From contig DATHTE010000014.1 in the NCBI GenBank assembly GCA_035463475.1, positions 2,750 through 66,749 on the forward strand: a stretch of 64,000 nt of DNA, read 5' to 3'. This DNA is from Vicinamibacterales bacterium. GTDB lineage: Bacteria > Acidobacteriota > Vicinamibacteria > Vicinamibacterales > 2-12-FULL-66-21. Positions 5,558 through 44,886 of the stretch are shown in pieces. The position numbers and the translations under genes are program-made. How positions within the stretch are numbered: the stretch's first letter is position 1; every line of letters starts with the position of its first letter. Below the pieces are notes generated by a model, which saw only the letters and a program-made list of their open reading frames with translations, did no database searches and had not been told where the DNA came from.

Positions 5558-6121
5558 ATGAACGGACATCGTTCTGACGCGATGTCCTCTAGAGTCGCAA
5601 AGATGGCCGATTCGAGACCTGACCCCAAGGCGGCGCCCAAGGCGCCGCCGTTCGCTCTCCCGGACACGCGCGGCATCGTGCACACGCTCGAGGAGTTCCT
5701 GAGGCGCGGCCCGCTGCTGCTCGCCTTTCACCGAGGCACCTGGTGACCGAACTGCCGCCGCCGGTTCGGCGAGCTCGCGCAGAACAGTACGCAATATCTC
5801 GAACGCGGCTATGCCACGGTCGCCATCGTCGCGCAGAAATCAGAGGCCGTGCAGCGTTACCTGGAATCGACCCGGCTGCCGTTCCGCGTGCTCGTAGATG
5901 CGGACCGGGACGTCGCGAAGGCGTACGGCGTCTGGCACCGGATCGGCTTCGACGCGTGGAACATCGCGCGCCCGGCGCTGTTCCTGATCGCTCCCGACGG
6001 CTCGATTGAAAAGAAGTTCGTGGCCCGGAGGCAGGACGAGTTTCCGAGCCACGAGGAGATCCTGGACTGGATAGAGAAGGAACGGGGTCAGACCCCATTA
6101 CGGATTCGTCATGGGGACTGA
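5558..6121 (+). CDS. PRX_like2/AhpC-TSA family thiol peroxidase-like protein with in-frame UGA (candidate selenocysteine) at 5744..5746
   Basis: Track ORFs 5558..5746 and 5849..6121 share a frame (offset 291 = 97x3). The only interruption between them is the TGA. Read-through gives LLLAFHRGTW-[UGA]-PNCRRRFGEL..VAIVAQKSEAVQRYLESTRLPFRVLVDADRDVAKAYGV..ALFLIAPDG. The start may instead be the ATG at 5603. Confidence 0.7.
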
Positions 6122-9699: not shown

Positions 9700-9900
9700 C
9701 CGGCTGACAACTGAACCGGCTTCCGCCCCGCGGCCACGCGAAGTGGGTGCAAACCCCACACGGTGCCGCCACTGTGAGCGGTCGAGCGGCCTCCACGCGC
9801 GGTCCTCCCGGATCGCGCAGCCACTGTGCGCGCTGGCGCATGGGAAGGCGGAGAGGCCGCAGAGTCCGCAAGTCAGGATACCTGGCCGACGGGGCGCTTC
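9700..9900 (+). promoter_or_regulatory. Cobalamin (B12) riboswitch in the 5' leader of the TonB-dependent receptor
   Basis: The conserved core gaaGTGGGTGCAAACCCCACacGGTGCCGCCACTGTgAGCGG lies at 9741..9782. A B12 box AAGTCAGGATACCTGGCC lies at 9870..9887. A possible anti-SD segment sits upstream of the GAAGGAGG RBS. The outer boundaries are approximate. Confidence 0.75.
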
Positions 9901-28791: not shown

Positions 28792-29928
28792 ATGCGCATC
28801 GAACAATTCGCCATGGAGCGGATGCAGTCCACCTGGGAGAACCGGGTCGAGATCAATCTCTCCGAGAGCGGCGTTCATCCGCTGCGCGTCGACGAGCTGT
28901 GCGACACCCCGGAGCTCCGCGAACTCCTGCTCCGGCAGGAGCTCGTATACACGCAGTCGAACGGCACGCCGGAGCTGCGCCGCTTCATCGCGGCCATGTA
29001 CCCAGGGGCGACGGAAGACCATGTTGAAGTGACCAACGGCGGATCCGAGGCGAACTACATCACGCTCTGGAACCTCGTCGAGCCGGGCGACGAGGTCGTC
29101 ATGATGGTGCCGAACTACATGCAGTCCTGGGGACTGGCGCGCGGGTTCGGCGGACAGCTCAAGCCGTGGGCGCTGCGTGAGGTGCACGACGGCGCATCGC
29201 CGCGCTGGCGACCGGACTTCGACGCGCTGCGATCGCTCGTGACCTCGAGGACGCGCCTGGTGCTGATCTGCAATCCCAACAACCCGACCGGCGCGCGGTT
29301 GACGGCGGCGGACCTGGACGAGATCTGCCGGATCGCCGGCGCGCATGGCGCGTGGCTGCTTTCCGACGAGATCTATCGTGGCGCGGAGCGGGACGGCGTC
29401 GAGACCGCGTCGGTCTGGGGCCGCTACGAGCGGGCAATCGTGACGAGCGGGCTGTCCAAGGCCTACGGCCTGCCCGGGCTGCGCATCGGCTGGATCGTCG
29501 CACCGCCAGACCTGATCGCGAAGCTCTGGTCGTACCACGATTACACGACGATCTCGCCCGGGGCCATGAGCGACCTGCTCGCGCGCGTCGCGCTCGCCCC
29601 CTCGCGCCGCGCCCGGATCGTCGCGCGGACGCGGCGAATCATCGGCGAGAACTATCCGATCGTGCGGGATTGGCTCGACGCCTTCGGCGGGCAGTTCCGC
29701 CACGCGGCGCCCGAAGCCGGCGCGATCGTCTACGTCGCGTATCGATACCCGATCAACTCGACGGAGCTGATCCTCAAGCTGAAGGACACGCACAGCGTGC
29801 TGATCGTGCCGGGGGACCACTTCCACATGGACGGCTACTTCCGGCTCGGGTTCGGGTCTGAGACCGATTACCTGAGGGAGGGACTGAAGCGGCTCAACGC
29901 GCTGCTGGAGTCTTTCGCGAAGGTGTGA
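28792..29928 (+). CDS. Class I/II PLP-dependent aminotransferase
   Basis: ICNPNNPTGA, DEIYRG, and SKAYGLPGLRIGW (PLP lysine). Confidence 0.8.
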   Translation: MRIEQFAMERMQSTWENRVEINLSESGVHPLRVDELCDTPELRELLLRQELVYTQSNGTPELRRFIAAMYPGATEDHVEVTNGGSEANYITLWNLVEPGDEVVMMVPNYMQSWGLARGFGGQLKPWALREVHDGASPRWRPDFDALRSLVTSRTRLVLICNPNNPTGARLTAADLDEICRIAGAHGAWLLSDEIYRGAERDGVETASVWGRYERAIVTSGLSKAYGLPGLRIGWIVAPPDLIAKLWSYHDYTTISPGAMSDLLARVALAPSRRARIVARTRRIIGENYPIVRDWLDAFGGQFRHAAPEAGAIVYVAYRYPINSTELILKLKDTHSVLIVPGDHFHMDGYFRLGFGSETDYLREGLKRLNALLESFAKV

Positions 29929-30956
29929 CGTTCGATCTCCTCCTGGTCGGCTTCGGCAACGTCGGCCGGCGCTTTGCCCGGCTGCTCGAAGAGCGGCGCG
30001 CCCGGCTGGCATCCGGCTACGACATCCAGACGCGCATCGTCGGCGTGGCCACGGGTGGGCACGGCGGCGTGTTCGATCCGGGCGGCGTGGATCTCGCGCG
30101 CGCCCTGGCGTCCCCTGAAAGCCTGGGGCCCGTGCCGAACGGGCTGGAGTTGATCGCCGCCGCAGCCGCGACCCCCGGGCGCGCGCCCCGGGTCGTCGTC
30201 GAAACGTCCCCACTCAGCATCGAGGACGCCCGGCCGGCGATCGACCACGTGCGGCTCGCGCTGCTGTCGCGCATGCACGTCGTCAGCGCCAACAAAGGGC
30301 CGGTGGCGCTCGCCTACCGCGAGCTGCGGCTGCTGGCGGATCGCATGGGGGTTCGCTACCTCTTCGAGGGAGCCGTGATGGACGGCATCCCCGTGTTCAA
30401 TCTGGTGCGGGACTCGATGCCGGCCGCCGACGTCCTCGGATTTCGCGGCGTCTTGAACAGCACGACGAACTACATCATCACGAGGCTCGAGGACGGGGAG
30501 GAATTCGGCCCGGCGCTGGCGGAGATGCGGCGGCAGGGGGTCGCCGAGGCGGACGCGTCGCTGGACATCGACGGCTGGGACGCCGCGGCGAAGACCGCGG
30601 CGCTCGTGAACGTGCTCATGGACGGCGCGATCGGGCCGCGCGACGTCGCGCGCACGGGCATCGCGGCGCTGACCGGCGCGCGCGTGCGCGAGGCCGTGGC
30701 GCACGGGCGGCGTATCAGGCTCGTCGCATCCGCGCGCCGCGAGGCAGGAACGATCCGGGCGAGCGTCGCGCCCGAGGAGCTCGCCTCAGAAGACCCGCTG
30801 GCGCTTCTGCGGGGAATGTCCAATGCGCTGTACATCGAGACGGACGTGCTCGGCCGGGTGGGAATCACGCAGGTCGATGGCGGCCTCACGCAGACGGCGT
30901 ACGCGCTCCTCTCGGACCTGGTGACGCTCGGCCGAGTGCCTCCAGCGCCTCGGTGA
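29925..30956 (+). CDS. hom: Homoserine dehydrogenase (no ACT domain)
   Basis: LLLVGFGNVGRR Rossmann loop, VVSANKGPVA, and FEGAVMDGIPVF. The GTG start overlaps the aminotransferase stop. Confidence 0.75.
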   Translation: MTFDLLLVGFGNVGRRFARLLEERRARLASGYDIQTRIVGVATGGHGGVFDPGGVDLARALASPESLGPVPNGLELIAAAAATPGRAPRVVVETSPLSIEDARPAIDHVRLALLSRMHVVSANKGPVALAYRELRLLADRMGVRYLFEGAVMDGIPVFNLVRDSMPAADVLGFRGVLNSTTNYIITRLEDGEEFGPALAEMRRQGVAEADASLDIDGWDAAAKTAALVNVLMDGAIGPRDVARTGIAALTGARVREAVAHGRRIRLVASARREAGTIRASVAPEELASEDPLALLRGMSNALYIETDVLGRVGITQVDGGLTQTAYALLSDLVTLGRVPPAPR

Positions 30957-31161
30957 GCGCCTGGGGGTCGAAGCCACTGATACGCGCCTTGCCGATGATC
31001 GTGACCGGGACGCTGCGAATTCCGAGCGCGACGAGATCGCGATACGCCGCGGCGTCTTCCTCGACGTTGCGCGCCGTGAAGGGCCGGCCGGAGCGTGAAA
31101 GAAACTCCTTCACCTGTTCGCACGCGTGTCAATGCGAACCGCTGAAGACGACGATCTCCAT
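30886..31161 (-). CDS. Glutaredoxin/NrdH-like thioredoxin-fold protein with in-frame UGA (candidate selenocysteine) at 31131..31129
   Basis: The track ORF 30886..31113 starts at an internal GTG. Extending the same frame upstream gives ATG(31161) MEIVVFSGSH-[UGA]-HACEQVKEFLSRSGRPFTARNVEEDAAAYRDLVALGIRSVPVTIIGKARISGFD. This is a Grx/NrdH layout with UxxC at the CxxC position. Confidence 0.65.
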
Positions 31162-31173
31162 TGCGATGATTCT

Positions 31174-32379
31174 ATGCCTGCCGCGCCCGATACCGCCGGT
31201 CCGCTGACCGGTATAACCGTCATCGACCTCAGCCGCGTGCTGTCTGGTCCGTTCTGCACGATGCAGCTGGCGGACATGGGCGCCCGGGTGATCAAAGTCG
31301 AGCAGCCTGGCCGCGGCGACGACACGCGCGCCTGGGGCCCGCCCTTCCCCGGTGGCGAGAGCGCGTACTACCTGAGCATCAACCGGAACAAGGAGAGCCT
31401 TGCGCTCGATCTGAAGCATGCAGCCGCGCGCGGCGTCCTCGAACGCCTGCTCGCGCGCGCGGACGTCGTCGTCGAGAATTTCCGTCCGGGGACGGCCGAA
31501 CGGCTCGGCGTGGGGTACGCGCAGGTCAGGGAGCGCTGGCCCCGGGTGATCTACTGCTCGATTTCCGGCTTCGGGCAGACGGGGCCACGGCGAGACGCGC
31601 CGGGGTACGACTCGGTCGTCCAGGCGGAAGGGGGCTTGATGAGCGTGACGGGGCACGCGGACAGACCACCCGTCCGGCTCGGCGTCGCCATCGGCGACAT
31701 GGCCGCGGGACTCTACGCCGCCTACGCGATCGCGCTCGCGCTGATGAGCCGGCACCGGTCGGGGCGAGGCCAGTTCATCGACGTCGGGATGCTCGACTCG
31801 GTCGCCTCTTTGCTCACGTATCAGGCGGCGCTGTTTTTCGCCGACGGCACCGTGCCGAGGCGGATGGGCAATCGGCACCCGACGATCGCGCCCTACGACA
31901 CGCTCGCAGCCTCGGACGGCGACTTCGTGCTCGCGGTCGGCAACGACGAACAATGGCGCCGTCTCTGCGCGACGCTGCACCTCGAGCACCTCGCGTCGGA
32001 CCCGCGCTACGCGACGAACGACCAGCGCGTGGTGAACTATGACGGTCTGCGGCCGGTGCTCGCCGAGAAGTTCGCGACCCGCTCACGCGATGCGTGGATC
32101 GAGACGCTGCTGGGGGCCGGCGTGCCGTGCGGATCCGTGCGCGAGATTCCAGAGGTGCTGGCGGACCCGCAACTGGCCGCGCGCGACATGATTGTCTCGC
32201 TCCCGCACGCCACGGCCGGCCGCATCAACGTGCTCGGCGTGCCCCCGAAATTGTCCGAGACGCCAGGACGCGTGCTCTCCCCTCCACCCAGGCTGGGAGA
32301 ACACACGGACGCAATCTTGAAGGAACTGGGCTTCGAGGTCCCGGAGATCGACGCGATGCGATCGGCGGGTGCGATCTAA
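31174..32379 (+). CDS. Family III CoA-transferase (CaiB/BaiF)
   Basis: PLTGITVIDLSRVLSGPFCTMQLADMGARVIKVE and NFRPG. Start taken at ATG 31174, since earlier in-frame starts would overlap the Grx-like gene. Confidence 0.85.
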   Translation: MPAAPDTAGPLTGITVIDLSRVLSGPFCTMQLADMGARVIKVEQPGRGDDTRAWGPPFPGGESAYYLSINRNKESLALDLKHAAARGVLERLLARADVVVENFRPGTAERLGVGYAQVRERWPRVIYCSISGFGQTGPRRDAPGYDSVVQAEGGLMSVTGHADRPPVRLGVAIGDMAAGLYAAYAIALALMSRHRSGRGQFIDVGMLDSVASLLTYQAALFFADGTVPRRMGNRHPTIAPYDTLAASDGDFVLAVGNDEQWRRLCATLHLEHLASDPRYATNDQRVVNYDGLRPVLAEKFATRSRDAWIETLLGAGVPCGSVREIPEVLADPQLAARDMIVSLPHATAGRINVLGVPPKLSETPGRVLSPPPRLGEHTDAILKELGFEVPEIDAMRSAGAI

Positions 32380-32891: not shown

Positions 32892-35300
32892 TCAGGCCAG
32901 GCGCTCGACGAACGAAGTGTCGATCCCTTCACGCTTCAGCAGCGTGAGCAGCCCCTCGCGGTCGTACGCCTTGCGCCAGGCTTCGCCGGCATCGACGATG
33001 CCGTCGCGGATGAGGCCGAAGAGCGCGTCGTTCAACGGCACGCTGCCCAGCCGGCGCCCGCTCTCCATCGCGGCGCCCAACTGGAAGAGCTTTCCTTCCG
33101 CGATGATCGACGCCGCGGCTGGAGTATTGAAGAGCAATTCGCGCGCCGCCACGCGCCCGCCGCCCCGCTTGCGAAGCAGCACCTGCGCGACCACCGCACG
33201 CAGGCTCGTGGACAACGTGGTGAGCACGTGCGCGCGCCGATCTGCCGGCACCTGCTCGACGAGGCGCTCGATCGCCTGCGCCGCCGCCGGCGCTCTCAGG
33301 CCCGCCAGCACGAACCGACCCGATTCGGCCGCCTCGAGCACCGCCGCGATCATGTCAGGCGAGCGCAGCTCCTCCACGAGGAGAACGTCCGGGTCCTCGC
33401 GGAGCGCGGATCGAACGGCGGCGACGACGTCGCTTGCCTCCCCGCGGACTTCGCGCTGACTCAAAAACGACCGCCGGCTCTCGTGCACGAAGCCGATCTG
33501 GCGCTCGATCGTGATGACGTGGTCGGCTCGGGTGCGGTTGATGAGATCGACGAACGCCGCCTCGAGCGTCGACTTGCCGCTGGCGCGCGGCCCTGCGATC
33601 AGCACGAGGCCGTCGGGCTGTCCGCACAGCGCCTGGATGTCCTTCGACAGCCCGAGCTGCTCGACGGAGATCGCACGCGCCGGCAGCATGCGCACAATCA
33701 CGCCCGGACCGCGGTGATCGCGGAACGAGAGACAGCGGACGCGTCCGATCTCGGCGACGTCGCGGAACCACTCCGGGGTCTCGCCGCTCTTGACAGCGTC
33801 GCGGGTGGGTTCTGGCGCGAGCGCCAGCATGAGCGCCTCGACGTCGCCGGCGCTGAGCGCTTCCTCGGCCTCGAGTTGCTGCATCTCGCCGTCCACGCGC
33901 ACGGCGGGGCGCGACTGCGCGACGAGATACAGTCCGGAGGCACCGCGCGCTGCCGCCACCCGGAGCAGGCGCTCGATCGCGGGCGCGCCGGCCGGCACGG
34001 ATGCCACCGGCTCCGGTTGCGCGCGCACGGTCCGCGCGAGCGGGAGAACGACCGCTGGCGTCGGCGTCTCCGCTTCCAGGCGGATCTCTTCGAGATGAGA
34101 CTCCTCGGCCTGCGATTCGGCCACTTCCCCCGGCTCGTCTACCTGTCTCGCTGCCGGCTGATCGGGCTCACGCGCGACGAGTTCGGGCGGCGGGACCTGG
34201 AGCATTCCCGAAGACGCCAGCAACTCCGCGACCTCCGCGGCATCCGGCTGCTGCTGCTCGACCTCCTGAACGATCTCGAACGGCGGCTCGGCCCGCTCAA
34301 AGGGGACACCGGCCACACCGGATCCGGTGTCGGGCTGCGTCTCCGCGGCTTCCGCGGCGACGAGTTCCTGGGTTCGACCAGCGGGCGCATCTACGCGCGG
34401 CTCGAAGGCGACTACGCGACCGGGCTGCGCCGCACTGGGCGGCGGCGGCTCTGGGACCGCGAACGCAGGTGGAACCTGCGCGGCCGCCGGTTCTTCGACC
34501 GGGGGCTCTTCCGCCGACGCGAGCTCGGCGATCGGCGCAGGCAGCGTTGCCGGCTCGGGCGCGGCGACGGGCGGGGGCATCACAGTGGGTGTCGGTTCGA
34601 CGGCGGGCGCCGGTTCGACAACTGGCGCCGGTTCGACAGCTGGTGCCGGCGCAGTCGCGGGCGCTGGTTCAGCAGCGGCCGCTGGTTCCATCGCGGGCGC
34701 GGGTTCAGCAGCGACCGCGAGCTCCATTGCGGGCGCGGGTTCAGCAGCGACCGCGAGTTCCATTGCGGGCGCGGGTTCAGCAGCGACCGCGAGCTCCATT
34801 GCGGGCGCAGGTTCGGCAGCGACCGCGAGCTCCATTGCGGGCGCGGGTTCGGCGGTGGCTGCGGGTTGAGCGGCGGTCGCGGGTTGAGCAGCGGCCGCAG
34901 GTGCCGCAACGGGCTCCGGTTCAGCCACAACGGGTGCAACCGGCTTCGGCCACATCGGGCGAATCTCCACCCAGATGTCGTCCCCGCCACGTGCCACGAC
35001 GATGTTGAACGGTGGCCGGTCCTCGACGGCGGGAAGTTCGTTCTCGACGGCGCCCAGTTCCCTGAGCGTGCGAACCTGCTCTGGCGTGAGCAGTTGATCG
35101 AGCATCCCGACCAATGTGTCGATCGTCAGGAAGCGAGTAGACAGCTCCACCTGTCCCCAGGCCAGCGGGCCGCGGAAAGCGTTCATCGCGGCCGACGAGG
35201 TCACCACGTACGGCTTTTCGCCGGTGTGGAGCACGAGGGCGTCTCCCTCGAGCCTGACGATCGCGCCGAGCAAAGAATCGACTAGAGACACGTGGAGCAA
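32892..35300 (-). CDS. PilT/GspE-superfamily ATPase-like protein with degenerate catalytic boxes, long Pro/Ala-rich repeat linker and unknown N-terminal domain
   Basis: The C-terminal ~360 aa align by eye to PilT (LIAGPRASGKST, ITIERQIG, DVLLVEELR, SGRFVLAGLRA). The middle ~300 aa are low-complexity P/A/E. The N-terminal ~115 aa are globular and of unknown family. Confidence 0.75.
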   Translation of the reverse strand: MLHVSLVDSLLGAIVRLEGDALVLHTGEKPYVVTSSAAMNAFRGPLAWGQVELSTRFLTIDTLVGMLDQLLTPEQVRTLRELGAVENELPAVEDRPPFNIVVARGGDDIWVEIRPMWPKPVAPVVAEPEPVAAPAAAAQPATAAQPAATAEPAPAMELAVAAEPAPAMELAVAAEPAPAMELAVAAEPAPAMELAVAAEPAPAMEPAAAAEPAPATAPAPAVEPAPVVEPAPAVEPTPTVMPPPVAAPEPATLPAPIAELASAEEPPVEEPAAAQVPPAFAVPEPPPPSAAQPGRVVAFEPRVDAPAGRTQELVAAEAAETQPDTGSGVAGVPFERAEPPFEIVQEVEQQQPDAAEVAELLASSGMLQVPPPELVAREPDQPAARQVDEPGEVAESQAEESHLEEIRLEAETPTPAVVLPLARTVRAQPEPVASVPAGAPAIERLLRVAAARGASGLYLVAQSRPAVRVDGEMQQLEAEEALSAGDVEALMLALAPEPTRDAVKSGETPEWFRDVAEIGRVRCLSFRDHRGPGVIVRMLPARAISVEQLGLSKDIQALCGQPDGLVLIAGPRASGKSTLEAAFVDLINRTRADHVITIERQIGFVHESRRSFLSQREVRGEASDVVAAVRSALREDPDVLLVEELRSPDMIAAVLEAAESGRFVLAGLRAPAAAQAIERLVEQVPADRRAHVLTTLSTSLRAVVAQVLLRKRGGGRVAARELLFNTPAAASIIAEGKLFQLGAAMESGRRLGSVPLNDALFGLIRDGIVDAGEAWRKAYDREGLLTLLKREGIDTSFVERLA
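34688..34860. repeat. 36-bp tandem repeat, ~4.8 copies, in-frame inside the PilT-like gene (encodes AEPAPAMELAVA units)
   Basis: The unit ccattgcgggcgcgggttcagcagcgaccgcgagct is repeated head-to-tail with 0-3 mismatches per copy. Confidence 0.9.
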
Positions 35301-44002: not shown

Positions 44003-44886
44003 GAGAGCGCGAGCCGCGCGGCGCCGATGGCTGGGGCTTCCTCGGCGAGCGCGGACATTTCGACGCGGAGGCGCGCGGCGAGCGCGGGAGGGAGCCGCCT
44101 TGCGCACTCCAGCCGGACAGGATCGAGCAGCAGGTCGCCCGCGCGGCCCACTTCTCCGCACAGCACGACGAGCTCCGGATCGATGGTGCTGACCAGGTTT
44201 GCGACCGCCATGCCGATGTACCTCGCCGTCTCACGGACGACGGAGATCGCGACGCCGTCGTGCGCGCGCGCGCCGTCGTAGACGTGATCGGCGGTGATCG
44301 CGTCGAGATCGGCCCCCTTCTCCAGCACGGCGGATTGGTCGCCCGCCTGGATTCGCCAGACGAAACGGCGCGCCACGCCGCGCGAACTGGCTTCCGCGTG
44401 CAGGCAGCCGGTACGTCGATAGTCCTGCCGCTCGACGGGGTTCAGGGCGAGCCAGGCAGCGCATCCCGCCAGGCCGTGCGAGCCGTGCCAGAGTTGTCCG
44501 TTGAGGAGAATCCCCGCGGAGATCTGATCGCCGATCACGAGCGCGACCGCGGTGTGGACCTCCGTGGCGGCGCCCATCCAGTTTTCCGCGACCACGGCAG
44601 CCTCGCCGGCGCGGACCACCTCGTCCGGCACGTCCACGAGCGCGCGGATGCTCCCGAGTGCCTTCATGATCGCGACGTCGGAGGGATCGTGGGCACAGAC
44701 GCGAGCGGGAATGCGCCCGGCGCCCTCGGGCAGGACCTTTTGCACCACGGCCTTCGCCGCGCGAGGGAGGTTGCCGTTTGCGGCGCGGCCATCGGCGCGC
44801 GACAGGATCGCGGGCGCGCCCGTCCCCAGCGCGACCGCCCGCACGGTGCGCGGGCCCATCTCGATCCCGATGGCCGCCGGCGTCAC
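43999..44886 (-). CDS. ROK-family sugar kinase/regulator-like protein
   Basis: IGIEMGPRTVRAVAL and GAGILLNGQLWHGSHGLAGC-type ROK core. It is coupled to nagA. Confidence 0.7.
   Translation of the reverse strand: MTPAAIGIEMGPRTVRAVALGTGAPAILSRADGRAANGNLPRAAKAVVQKVLPEGAGRIPARVCAHDPSDVAIMKALGSIRALVDVPDEVVRAGEAAVVAENWMGAATEVHTAVALVIGDQISAGILLNGQLWHGSHGLAGCAAWLALNPVERQDYRRTGCLHAEASSRGVARRFVWRIQAGDQSAVLEKGADLDAITADHVYDGARAHDGVAISVVRETARYIGMAVANLVSTIDPELVVLCGEVGRAGDLLLDPVRLECARRLPPALAARLRVEMSALAEEAPAIGAARLALS

Follow-up and report, generated by a model that had tools for sequence, protein, structure and literature searches.

How should the short reading frame at 30886..31113 on the minus strand of this DNA be read? 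The stretch analysed here, which we call the window, comprises 64,000 nucleotides of contig DATHTE010000014.1 from a Vicinamibacterales bacterium, a member of the Acidobacteriota. A mechanical list of open reading frames (ORFs) gives at this locus only a 75-codon ORF, opened by GTG 31113. The first-pass annotation of the window had proposed that this GTG is internal to a longer gene, which continues upstream in the same frame through a TGA at 31131..31129 to the ATG at 31161, and that the TGA is decoded as selenocysteine (Sec) in a glutaredoxin-like protein. The GTG start in the mechanical list and the continuity of the frame to the ATG were both borne out, the first from the list itself and the second by translation, and every coordinate and sequence statement made in that annotation proved correct. 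We find it highly probable (about 0.9) that the product of 30886..31161 is a selenoprotein of 91 residues, from the glutaredoxin/NrdH-like branch of the thioredoxin fold. Conservation extends to the TGA, to the coding frame on either side and to a hairpin downstream, and the hairpin is associated with the TGA forms of the gene.

A conserved frame on both sides of an in-frame TGA

Read from 31161, the minus strand runs ATG GAG ATC GTC GTC TTC AGC GGT TCG CAT TGA CAC GCG TGC GAA CAG GTG AAG GAG TTT CTT TCA CGC. In translation MEIVVFSGSH precedes the TGA and HACEQVKEFLSRSGRPF...ISGFDPQAL... follows it as far as an ordinary stop (Table 1); the product of read-through begins MEIVVFSGSH-*-HACEQVKEFLSR.

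We scanned one genome per species for orthologues and recovered nine loci (L001-L009), all in metagenome-assembled genomes assigned to Acidobacteriota, Vicinamibacteria or Vicinamibacterales. They align with the window gene across its full length and TGA stands at the Sec column in all nine, most of them reading U-R-A-C where the window gene reads U-H-A-C. A coenzyme A (CoA)-transferase gene is the divergent upstream neighbour at every one of these loci and a homoserine dehydrogenase gene the convergent downstream neighbour at six. The neighbour proteins are 52-68% identical to those of the window, and because synteny is held while identity is only this high we regard the nine loci as true, considerably distant orthologues. 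No hint of a redox role comes from the conserved neighbours (CoA-transferase, homoserine dehydrogenase and an aminotransferase). With four more distant family members (L010-L013, described below) the TGA is present in 13 of 13 relatives. A lone in-frame stop in one sequence would usually be read as the mark of a pseudogene, or of a CxxC glutaredoxin gene marred by an error of sequencing or assembly. Here the frame is intact on both sides and the neighbour proteins are as diverged as just described, and because 13 independent assemblies carry the same TGA we consider both explanations effectively refuted.

The last 71 nt of the gene (30886..30956) are shared with the convergent homoserine dehydrogenase gene (29925..30956, plus strand). 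In three of the orthologues (L004-L006) the stop comes eight codons sooner (...DR*), yet the same frame still reads ARTPS(A/R) or AAHRQSA beyond it, probably because the opposite strand encodes the C-terminus of the dehydrogenase.

The alternative that translation begins at GTG 31113, with the upstream frame and its TGA non-coding, agrees with the mechanical ORF list, and public gene callers have made the same choice. The sole match of a word-indexed protein search (P0001, named 'glutaredoxin-like protein NrdH' by the Joint Genome Institute, JGI) is truncated at the same GTG, next to a homoserine dehydrogenase gene as in the window; it and 57 of the 151 homologous proteins considered below start at [MV]KEFLS. 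The product would be a 75-residue fragment without the redox motif, lacking strand beta-1 and the active site. The substitution pattern argues otherwise. At codons 3 and 5 (I3 and V5) the first two positions are invariant in the orthologues and G8 is nearly invariant (one Arg), and pairwise third-position identity is 0.31, 0.27 and 0.62 for I3, V5 and G8, respectively. The first-pass annotation had made conservation of the upstream codons a check on its proposal, and they are kept in all nine orthologues with a coding-type pattern of substitution. Because the ten codons before the TGA are conserved as coding, varying mainly at third positions, we conclude that translation does not start at GTG 31113. 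Nor does the local sequence offer anything in favour of this codon: no Shine-Dalgarno sequence precedes it, a -10-like box is conserved 6-7 nt before the ATG, and the GTG itself makes up the first three bases of a conserved hairpin stem. We consider a start at the GTG extremely unlikely, and it is very likely that the 75-residue ORF is a gene-calling artefact and that the real product is the 91-residue UxxC selenoprotein.

For family searches we used the 91-residue product with U replaced by C. Residues 3-58 matched the Pfam family Glutaredoxin (PF00462) with 41.1 bits against a cut-off of 22.9 (E = 2e-10), and the glutaredoxin elements UHAC, VPVT and GFD occur in order, which places the protein within PF00462. 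The best NCBIfam match, over the whole length at residues 3-74, was the YruB-family glutaredoxin-like model TIGR02196, with 58.2 bits, under its curated cut-off of 88.55. The NrdH models gave 46.2 bits against 85.75 (TIGR02194) and 31.9 against 131 (NF007657), outside NrdH membership, and the NCBIfam model for Grx3 also scored under its curated cut-off. The UXX-star models reached at most 27.4 bits against cut-offs of 66-100, the best being NF041212 (27.4 against 66) and the subfamilies NF041114, NF041211 and NF047338 being weaker. Among solved structures the best relative is Clostridium oremlandii Grx1 (PDB 7c10; E = 2.9e-12, 40% identity over 72 residues), followed by E. coli NrdH (PDB 1h75, 31% identity). 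The first-pass annotation had placed the UGA at the first Cys of the redox motif, and the TGA column indeed aligns with the catalytic Cys in both. We assign the fold because of these Pfam and PDB sequence matches. In its native form the clostridial protein, cGrx1, is a selenoprotein whose motif is U(or C)PXC; its catalytic Sec was swapped for Cys for crystallography (PMC7642778). Of the glutaredoxin/NrdH layout first proposed, the glutaredoxin-like UxxC protein stands, with its PF00462 match, cis-Pro and GFD; 'NrdH-like' holds as a resemblance only, given scores under both the NrdH and the YruB cut-offs.

The hairpin and the peptide it encodes

Fifteen nucleotides after the UGA the mRNA can form the hairpin GUGAAGGA-GUU-UCUUUCAC, and we confirmed this structure as it was first described, with eight pairs including one G-U and a GUU loop starting 23 nt after the UGA. 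Its energy is -6.8 kcal/mol for the 19-nt core and -8.4 kcal/mol with flanking bases. The model of the bacterial selenocysteine insertion sequence (SECIS), as summarised in PMC13188914, has a loop of 3-9 nt with G in the two opening positions, a stem of 4-16 bp, a distance of 16-37 nt from the UGA and a minimum free energy of at most -7.5 kcal/mol. Set against the model, the GUU loop, the 8-bp stem, the 23-nt spacing and the energy with flanking bases all fall inside these limits, and the earlier statement that the UGA-to-loop distance lies within the reported bacterial range holds on the same terms.

The hairpin accompanies the TGA. RNAalifold, run on 14 TGA forms, returned the same 8-bp stem as the sole consensus structure, and the hairpin forms in all 14 with energies of -5.2 to -8.5 kcal/mol. 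It is absent from each of three Cys forms (L052-L054), in which the equivalent 19 nt do not fold (0, -2.9 and -1.8 kcal/mol); one of these keeps the peptide VKEFLSR through other codons, without the hairpin. Standard pairs fill 97% of the cells of the 14-sequence hairpin alignment. One pair alternates between A-U (8 sequences) and G-U (6). At the pair closing the loop, 10 sequences have A-U and 2 have G-C, the remaining 2 being open; the change from A-U to G-C alters the peptide EF to GY or GF. Covariation of the hairpin had been set as a check, and the outcome was modest: one pair has changed on both sides and another shows the G-U/A-U alternation. Judged from the alignment, then, the covariation is real, if thin.

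Codon choice points in the same direction. In the ten Vicinamibacteria-type sequences, identity at third positions averages 0.89 over the hairpin codons, against 0.50 over other codons whose amino acid is invariant (Mann-Whitney p = 0.01). The stem codons TTT, CTT and TCA are fixed, and in 30 confident genes of the window they make up 9%, 3.4% and 3.4% of the Phe, Leu and Ser codons, respectively. The hairpin illustrates how a SECIS constrains the choice of codons as well as the peptide, and a covariance model for finding further genes of this kind could be seeded from it.

Two further structures were considered and set aside. A second 8-bp hairpin, at 31114..31139 on the minus strand (GUUCGCAU / GUGCGAAC, -9.4 kcal/mol), has the UGA within its loop; we rejected it since the structure is not conserved in the 13 relatives, and the S-H and C-E codons probably produce it incidentally. 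The other is a lower SECIS stem between the x-A-C and the R-A-G codons, which folds in several orthologues; it is weak in the window and lies outside the RNAalifold consensus, and we do not claim it.

Sec and Cys forms of the family and a second UxxC gene

An exhaustive HMMER search with the 75-residue piece returned 160 representative clusters at E <= 0.001. We classified 151 proteins, namely the best 150 of these 160 clusters and P0001. Full-length proteins with CxxC account for 53 and CxxS proteins for 3. A further 57 start exactly at the helix ([MV]KEFLS-like) and lack the redox motif, 7 start between the Sec position and the second Cys, and the remaining 31 are other forms or fragments. 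Thus 64 of the 151 begin at or just past the Sec position ([MV]KEFLS... or M-x-C-E...). We inspected the DNA of four distant 'truncated' members (L010-L013). In each of them a start codon and a beta-1-like peptide lead up to an in-frame TGA at the column expected; their motifs are U-VPC, U-PHC, U-RAC and U-GAC, and one of them (L011) resembles clostridial Grx1. The three Cys-form homologues checked in DNA (L052-L054) have TGC at this column. The question of whether related genomes carry TGA or Cys here is therefore answered with both, TGA in the nine orthologues and Cys in 7c10, 1h75 and 53 of the 151 representative homologues, and with the three TGC codons the column behaves as a Sec/Cys pair. 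Judging by these sequences, the window gene is a member of a widespread family with Sec and Cys forms, and mis-calling of the Sec forms in public protein sets appears widespread and systematic. One protein (P0023) reads SGSH-R-L-ACEQVKEFLSR, with Arg in place of the expected Sec; this could be a TGA-to-CGA change or an error.

A second UxxC gene lies in the same window (Table 1). Among 36 metagenomic relatives of this peroxiredoxin/SelL-related gene, the corresponding column holds TGA in 7 and TGC or TGT in 29, and the gene proved to be a true Sec/Cys pair. In the TGA forms, the window's included, a GUU-triloop hairpin of -7.4 to -11.8 kcal/mol lies 17 nt past the UGA. The corresponding segment of the Cys forms averages -4.3 kcal/mol, and the GUU-triloop stem is kept only in the TGA forms. 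The first-pass annotation had taken the two UxxC genes to mean that the organism decodes Sec, and this pair supports that inference. A scan for more TGA-interrupted frames in the window gave only ordinary gene junctions, at thresholds that also missed both known UxxC genes.

Of 36 confident genes in the window 20 end in TGA, which makes it the commonest ordinary stop; this means that the code has not been reassigned and that recoding must be local. The UGA might nevertheless be read through without Sec, by near-cognate Trp or Cys, by Cys carried on tRNA(Sec), or by read-through that the hairpin stimulates. The Sec machinery is not seen in the window, as such an explanation would allow, and a hairpin by itself cannot reveal the inserted amino acid. 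However, the position is that of the family's catalytic Cys/Sec, and among solved structures the nearest relative is natively a selenoprotein (PMC7642778). The hairpin matches the bacterial model in its G-first loop and its spacing, the second gene of the window shows TGA/Cys alternation with the same loop, and TGA is the main stop codon here. We judge insertion of another amino acid to be very unlikely.

Several observations weigh against the selenoprotein reading. No selA, selB, selD or tRNA-Sec was found within the 64-kb window by ARAGORN, Rfam or motif scan, and a search of 31040..31170 at a permissive threshold gave no Rfam family or SECIS match. Taken as a single sequence, the hairpin is not beyond chance (z = -1.67 for the 71-nt fold, with 11 of 200 shuffles folding as well), so its significance comes from conservation in other sequences and not from the single-sequence fold. 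The covariation is thin in that five of the eight pairs never vary and a double change occurs in only two sequences. Finally, scores under the YruB, NrdH and Grx3 cut-offs give the protein neither a subfamily nor a reductant.

ARAGORN reported a 96-nt 'tRNA-Gly(acc)' at 44787..44882 on the minus strand. We rejected it as a tRNA-Sec on its wrong anticodon and the absence of an Rfam tRNA match; it lies in a coding-like GC-rich stretch and is probably a false positive.

The selenoprotein reading fits the published distribution of such proteins. Comparative work of older date counts Acidobacteria among the phyla with selenoproteins and glutaredoxin as a selenoprotein family (PMC1794560), and a 2026 review counts Grx (PF00462, UxxC) among the experimentally supported prokaryotic selenoproteins. 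Our literature search combining Vicinamibacteria with selenocysteine found no relevant publication in the library that it covered. Sec-containing glutaredoxins with UxxC and the bacterial SECIS (bSECIS) model were already known, and our results do not change what is known of Sec decoding. What is new is a family member in Vicinamibacteria-like Acidobacteriota, a lineage for which we found no published selenoproteome. The hairpin is tightly tied to the VKEFLS peptide across distant lineages. Together with the peroxiredoxin-like gene, the glutaredoxin-like gene indicates that a soil Acidobacteriota (Vicinamibacteria-like) lineage uses Sec in thiol-redox proteins.

Proposed decoding and relation to known systems

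In the selenoprotein reading, translation would start at ATG 31161, possibly on a leaderless mRNA, and the UGA at codon 11 would be recoded as Sec. As the ribosome approaches, the hairpin would bring SelB-GTP-Sec-tRNA(Sec) to it in the manner of other bacterial selenoprotein genes, the role of SelB being that expected for the family. With its U-H-A-C motif predicted at the start of helix alpha-1, its cis-Pro (VPVT) and its GFD motif, the product would be a selenol/thiol-disulfide oxidoreductase. By analogy with the family, Sec11 would attack a disulfide or sulfenate of the substrate and Cys14 would resolve the intermediate to a selenenylsulfide. An external reductant would then recycle the enzyme, perhaps thioredoxin reductase, which serves NrdH, or glutathione, which serves cGrx1.

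The leaderless mRNA is suggested by the conserved -10-like box, a possible promoter that would leave little or no leader. Seven orthologues (L001-L006 and L008) have a comparable box (TATTCT, TACAAT, CATAAT or CATACT) 6-7 nt before their start. In the window the box, TAGAAT, overlaps with the ATG at which the divergent CoA-transferase gene is likely to start (31174), and only about 12 nt separate the two start codons. A consensus promoter scan found no full -35/-10 site and no -35 element at the TAGAAT box, and because of this we can only infer the leaderless transcript. It is also possible that the SECIS hairpin forms one module with the beginning of helix alpha-1 (V-K-E-F-L-S), shared from Clostridia-type to Acidobacteriota sequences. 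The two ideas together, a single hairpin-peptide module and a leaderless selenoprotein mRNA in the Vicinamibacteria group, make a tentative proposal on which we would not bet at even odds. If the module is real it would be a distinct bSECIS class without Rfam representation, and it would account for the roughly 40% of the family's representative clusters that are truncated at the same residue. If the mRNA is leaderless, Sec recoding would take place at codon 11 of a transcript without a 5' untranslated region.

Table 1. Coordinates of the predicted selenoprotein gene, its elements and the second UxxC gene of the window
Feature	Position	Strand	Description and basis
Complete coding sequence, probable glutaredoxin-like selenoprotein	30886..31161	-	91 codons plus stop, Sec at codon 11, ordinary stop TGA 30888..30886; translation, Pfam, nine full-length syntenic orthologues
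Start codon ATG	31159..31161	-	Orthologue frames opened by ATG (GTG in L007 and L009) here or a few codons upstream
In-frame TGA, probable U11, first residue of the U-H-A-C redox motif	31129..31131	-	Invariant in L001-L009 as in L010-L013; 7c10 and 1h75 align here with their catalytic Cys
TGC, predicted resolving Cys14 of UxxC	31120..31122	-	Cys invariant in 14 of 14 sequences
Codon of Pro52, predicted cis-proline of the thioredoxin fold (V-P-V-T)	31006..31008	-	Pro invariant in a 20-sequence protein alignment; aligns with VP of solved Grx/NrdH
SECIS-type hairpin	31095..31113	-	Encodes V17-K-E-F-L-S-R23; RNAalifold consensus of 14 sequences
-10-like box TAGAAT	31169..31174	-	7 nt upstream of the ATG; read from the sequence
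Second UxxC gene, ...FHRGTW-U-PNC	5558..6121	+	TGA 5744..5746; hairpin ~5757..5774; peroxiredoxin/SelL-related by NCBIfam

Elsewhere in the window, a cobalamin riboswitch aptamer (RF00174) scores 56 bits, over its gathering score, at 9740..9880 on the plus strand. The end region of a large ORF at 32892..35300 on the minus strand is shared with relatives coding for proteins like type II/IV secretion ATPases (T2SSE in L052), and the N-terminal half of the ORF contains about four copies of a tandem Ala/Pro-rich repeat, AAEPAPAMELAV.

How does the window protein compare with known systems? It shares with NrdH-redoxin (1h75, TIGR02194) a small glutaredoxin-like form of about 75-80 residues in which residues 11-14 make up the redox motif. 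Both also have a cis-Pro and a motif of the type SGF(D/R)P, ISGFDP in the window protein and WSGFRP in NrdH. The window protein differs in having UHAC in place of CVQC, and no nrdEF or nrdI genes were recognised among its neighbours; we know of no NrdH protein that is a selenoprotein. The YruB family (TIGR02196) gives the best NCBIfam match, but the score is under the cut-off and the family is without an established function. The UXX-star selenoproteins likewise combine a glutaredoxin-like fold with Sec. Their name suggests that they end two residues after it, whereas the window protein has Sec at residue 11 of 91, in a UxxC motif with 77 more residues after it. As for the RNA, the SECIS of E. 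coli fdhF has a bulged U, which the window hairpin lacks. The bSECIS model (bSECISearch, as summarised in PMC13188914) is matched by a 3-nt loop of G then U, the 8-bp stem, the spacing and the energy, with the triloop standing at the small end of the range that the model allows.

The closest known protein is Clostridium (Alkaliphilus) oremlandii Grx1 (PDB 7c10/7c12), a selenoprotein glutaredoxin (Kim et al. 2011, as cited in PMC13188914). Its motif is U-P-H-C where the window gene has U-H-A-C, the host of the window gene belongs to a high-GC Acidobacteriota lineage, and we recognised no MsrA partner among the genes annotated next to the window gene. The two proteins nevertheless have the same fold and length, their Sec/Cys residues align at the first position of U-x-x-C, the VKEFLS peptide lies equally far after the motif, and the clostridial-type metagenomic relative L011 has both the TGA and the hairpin at the same place.

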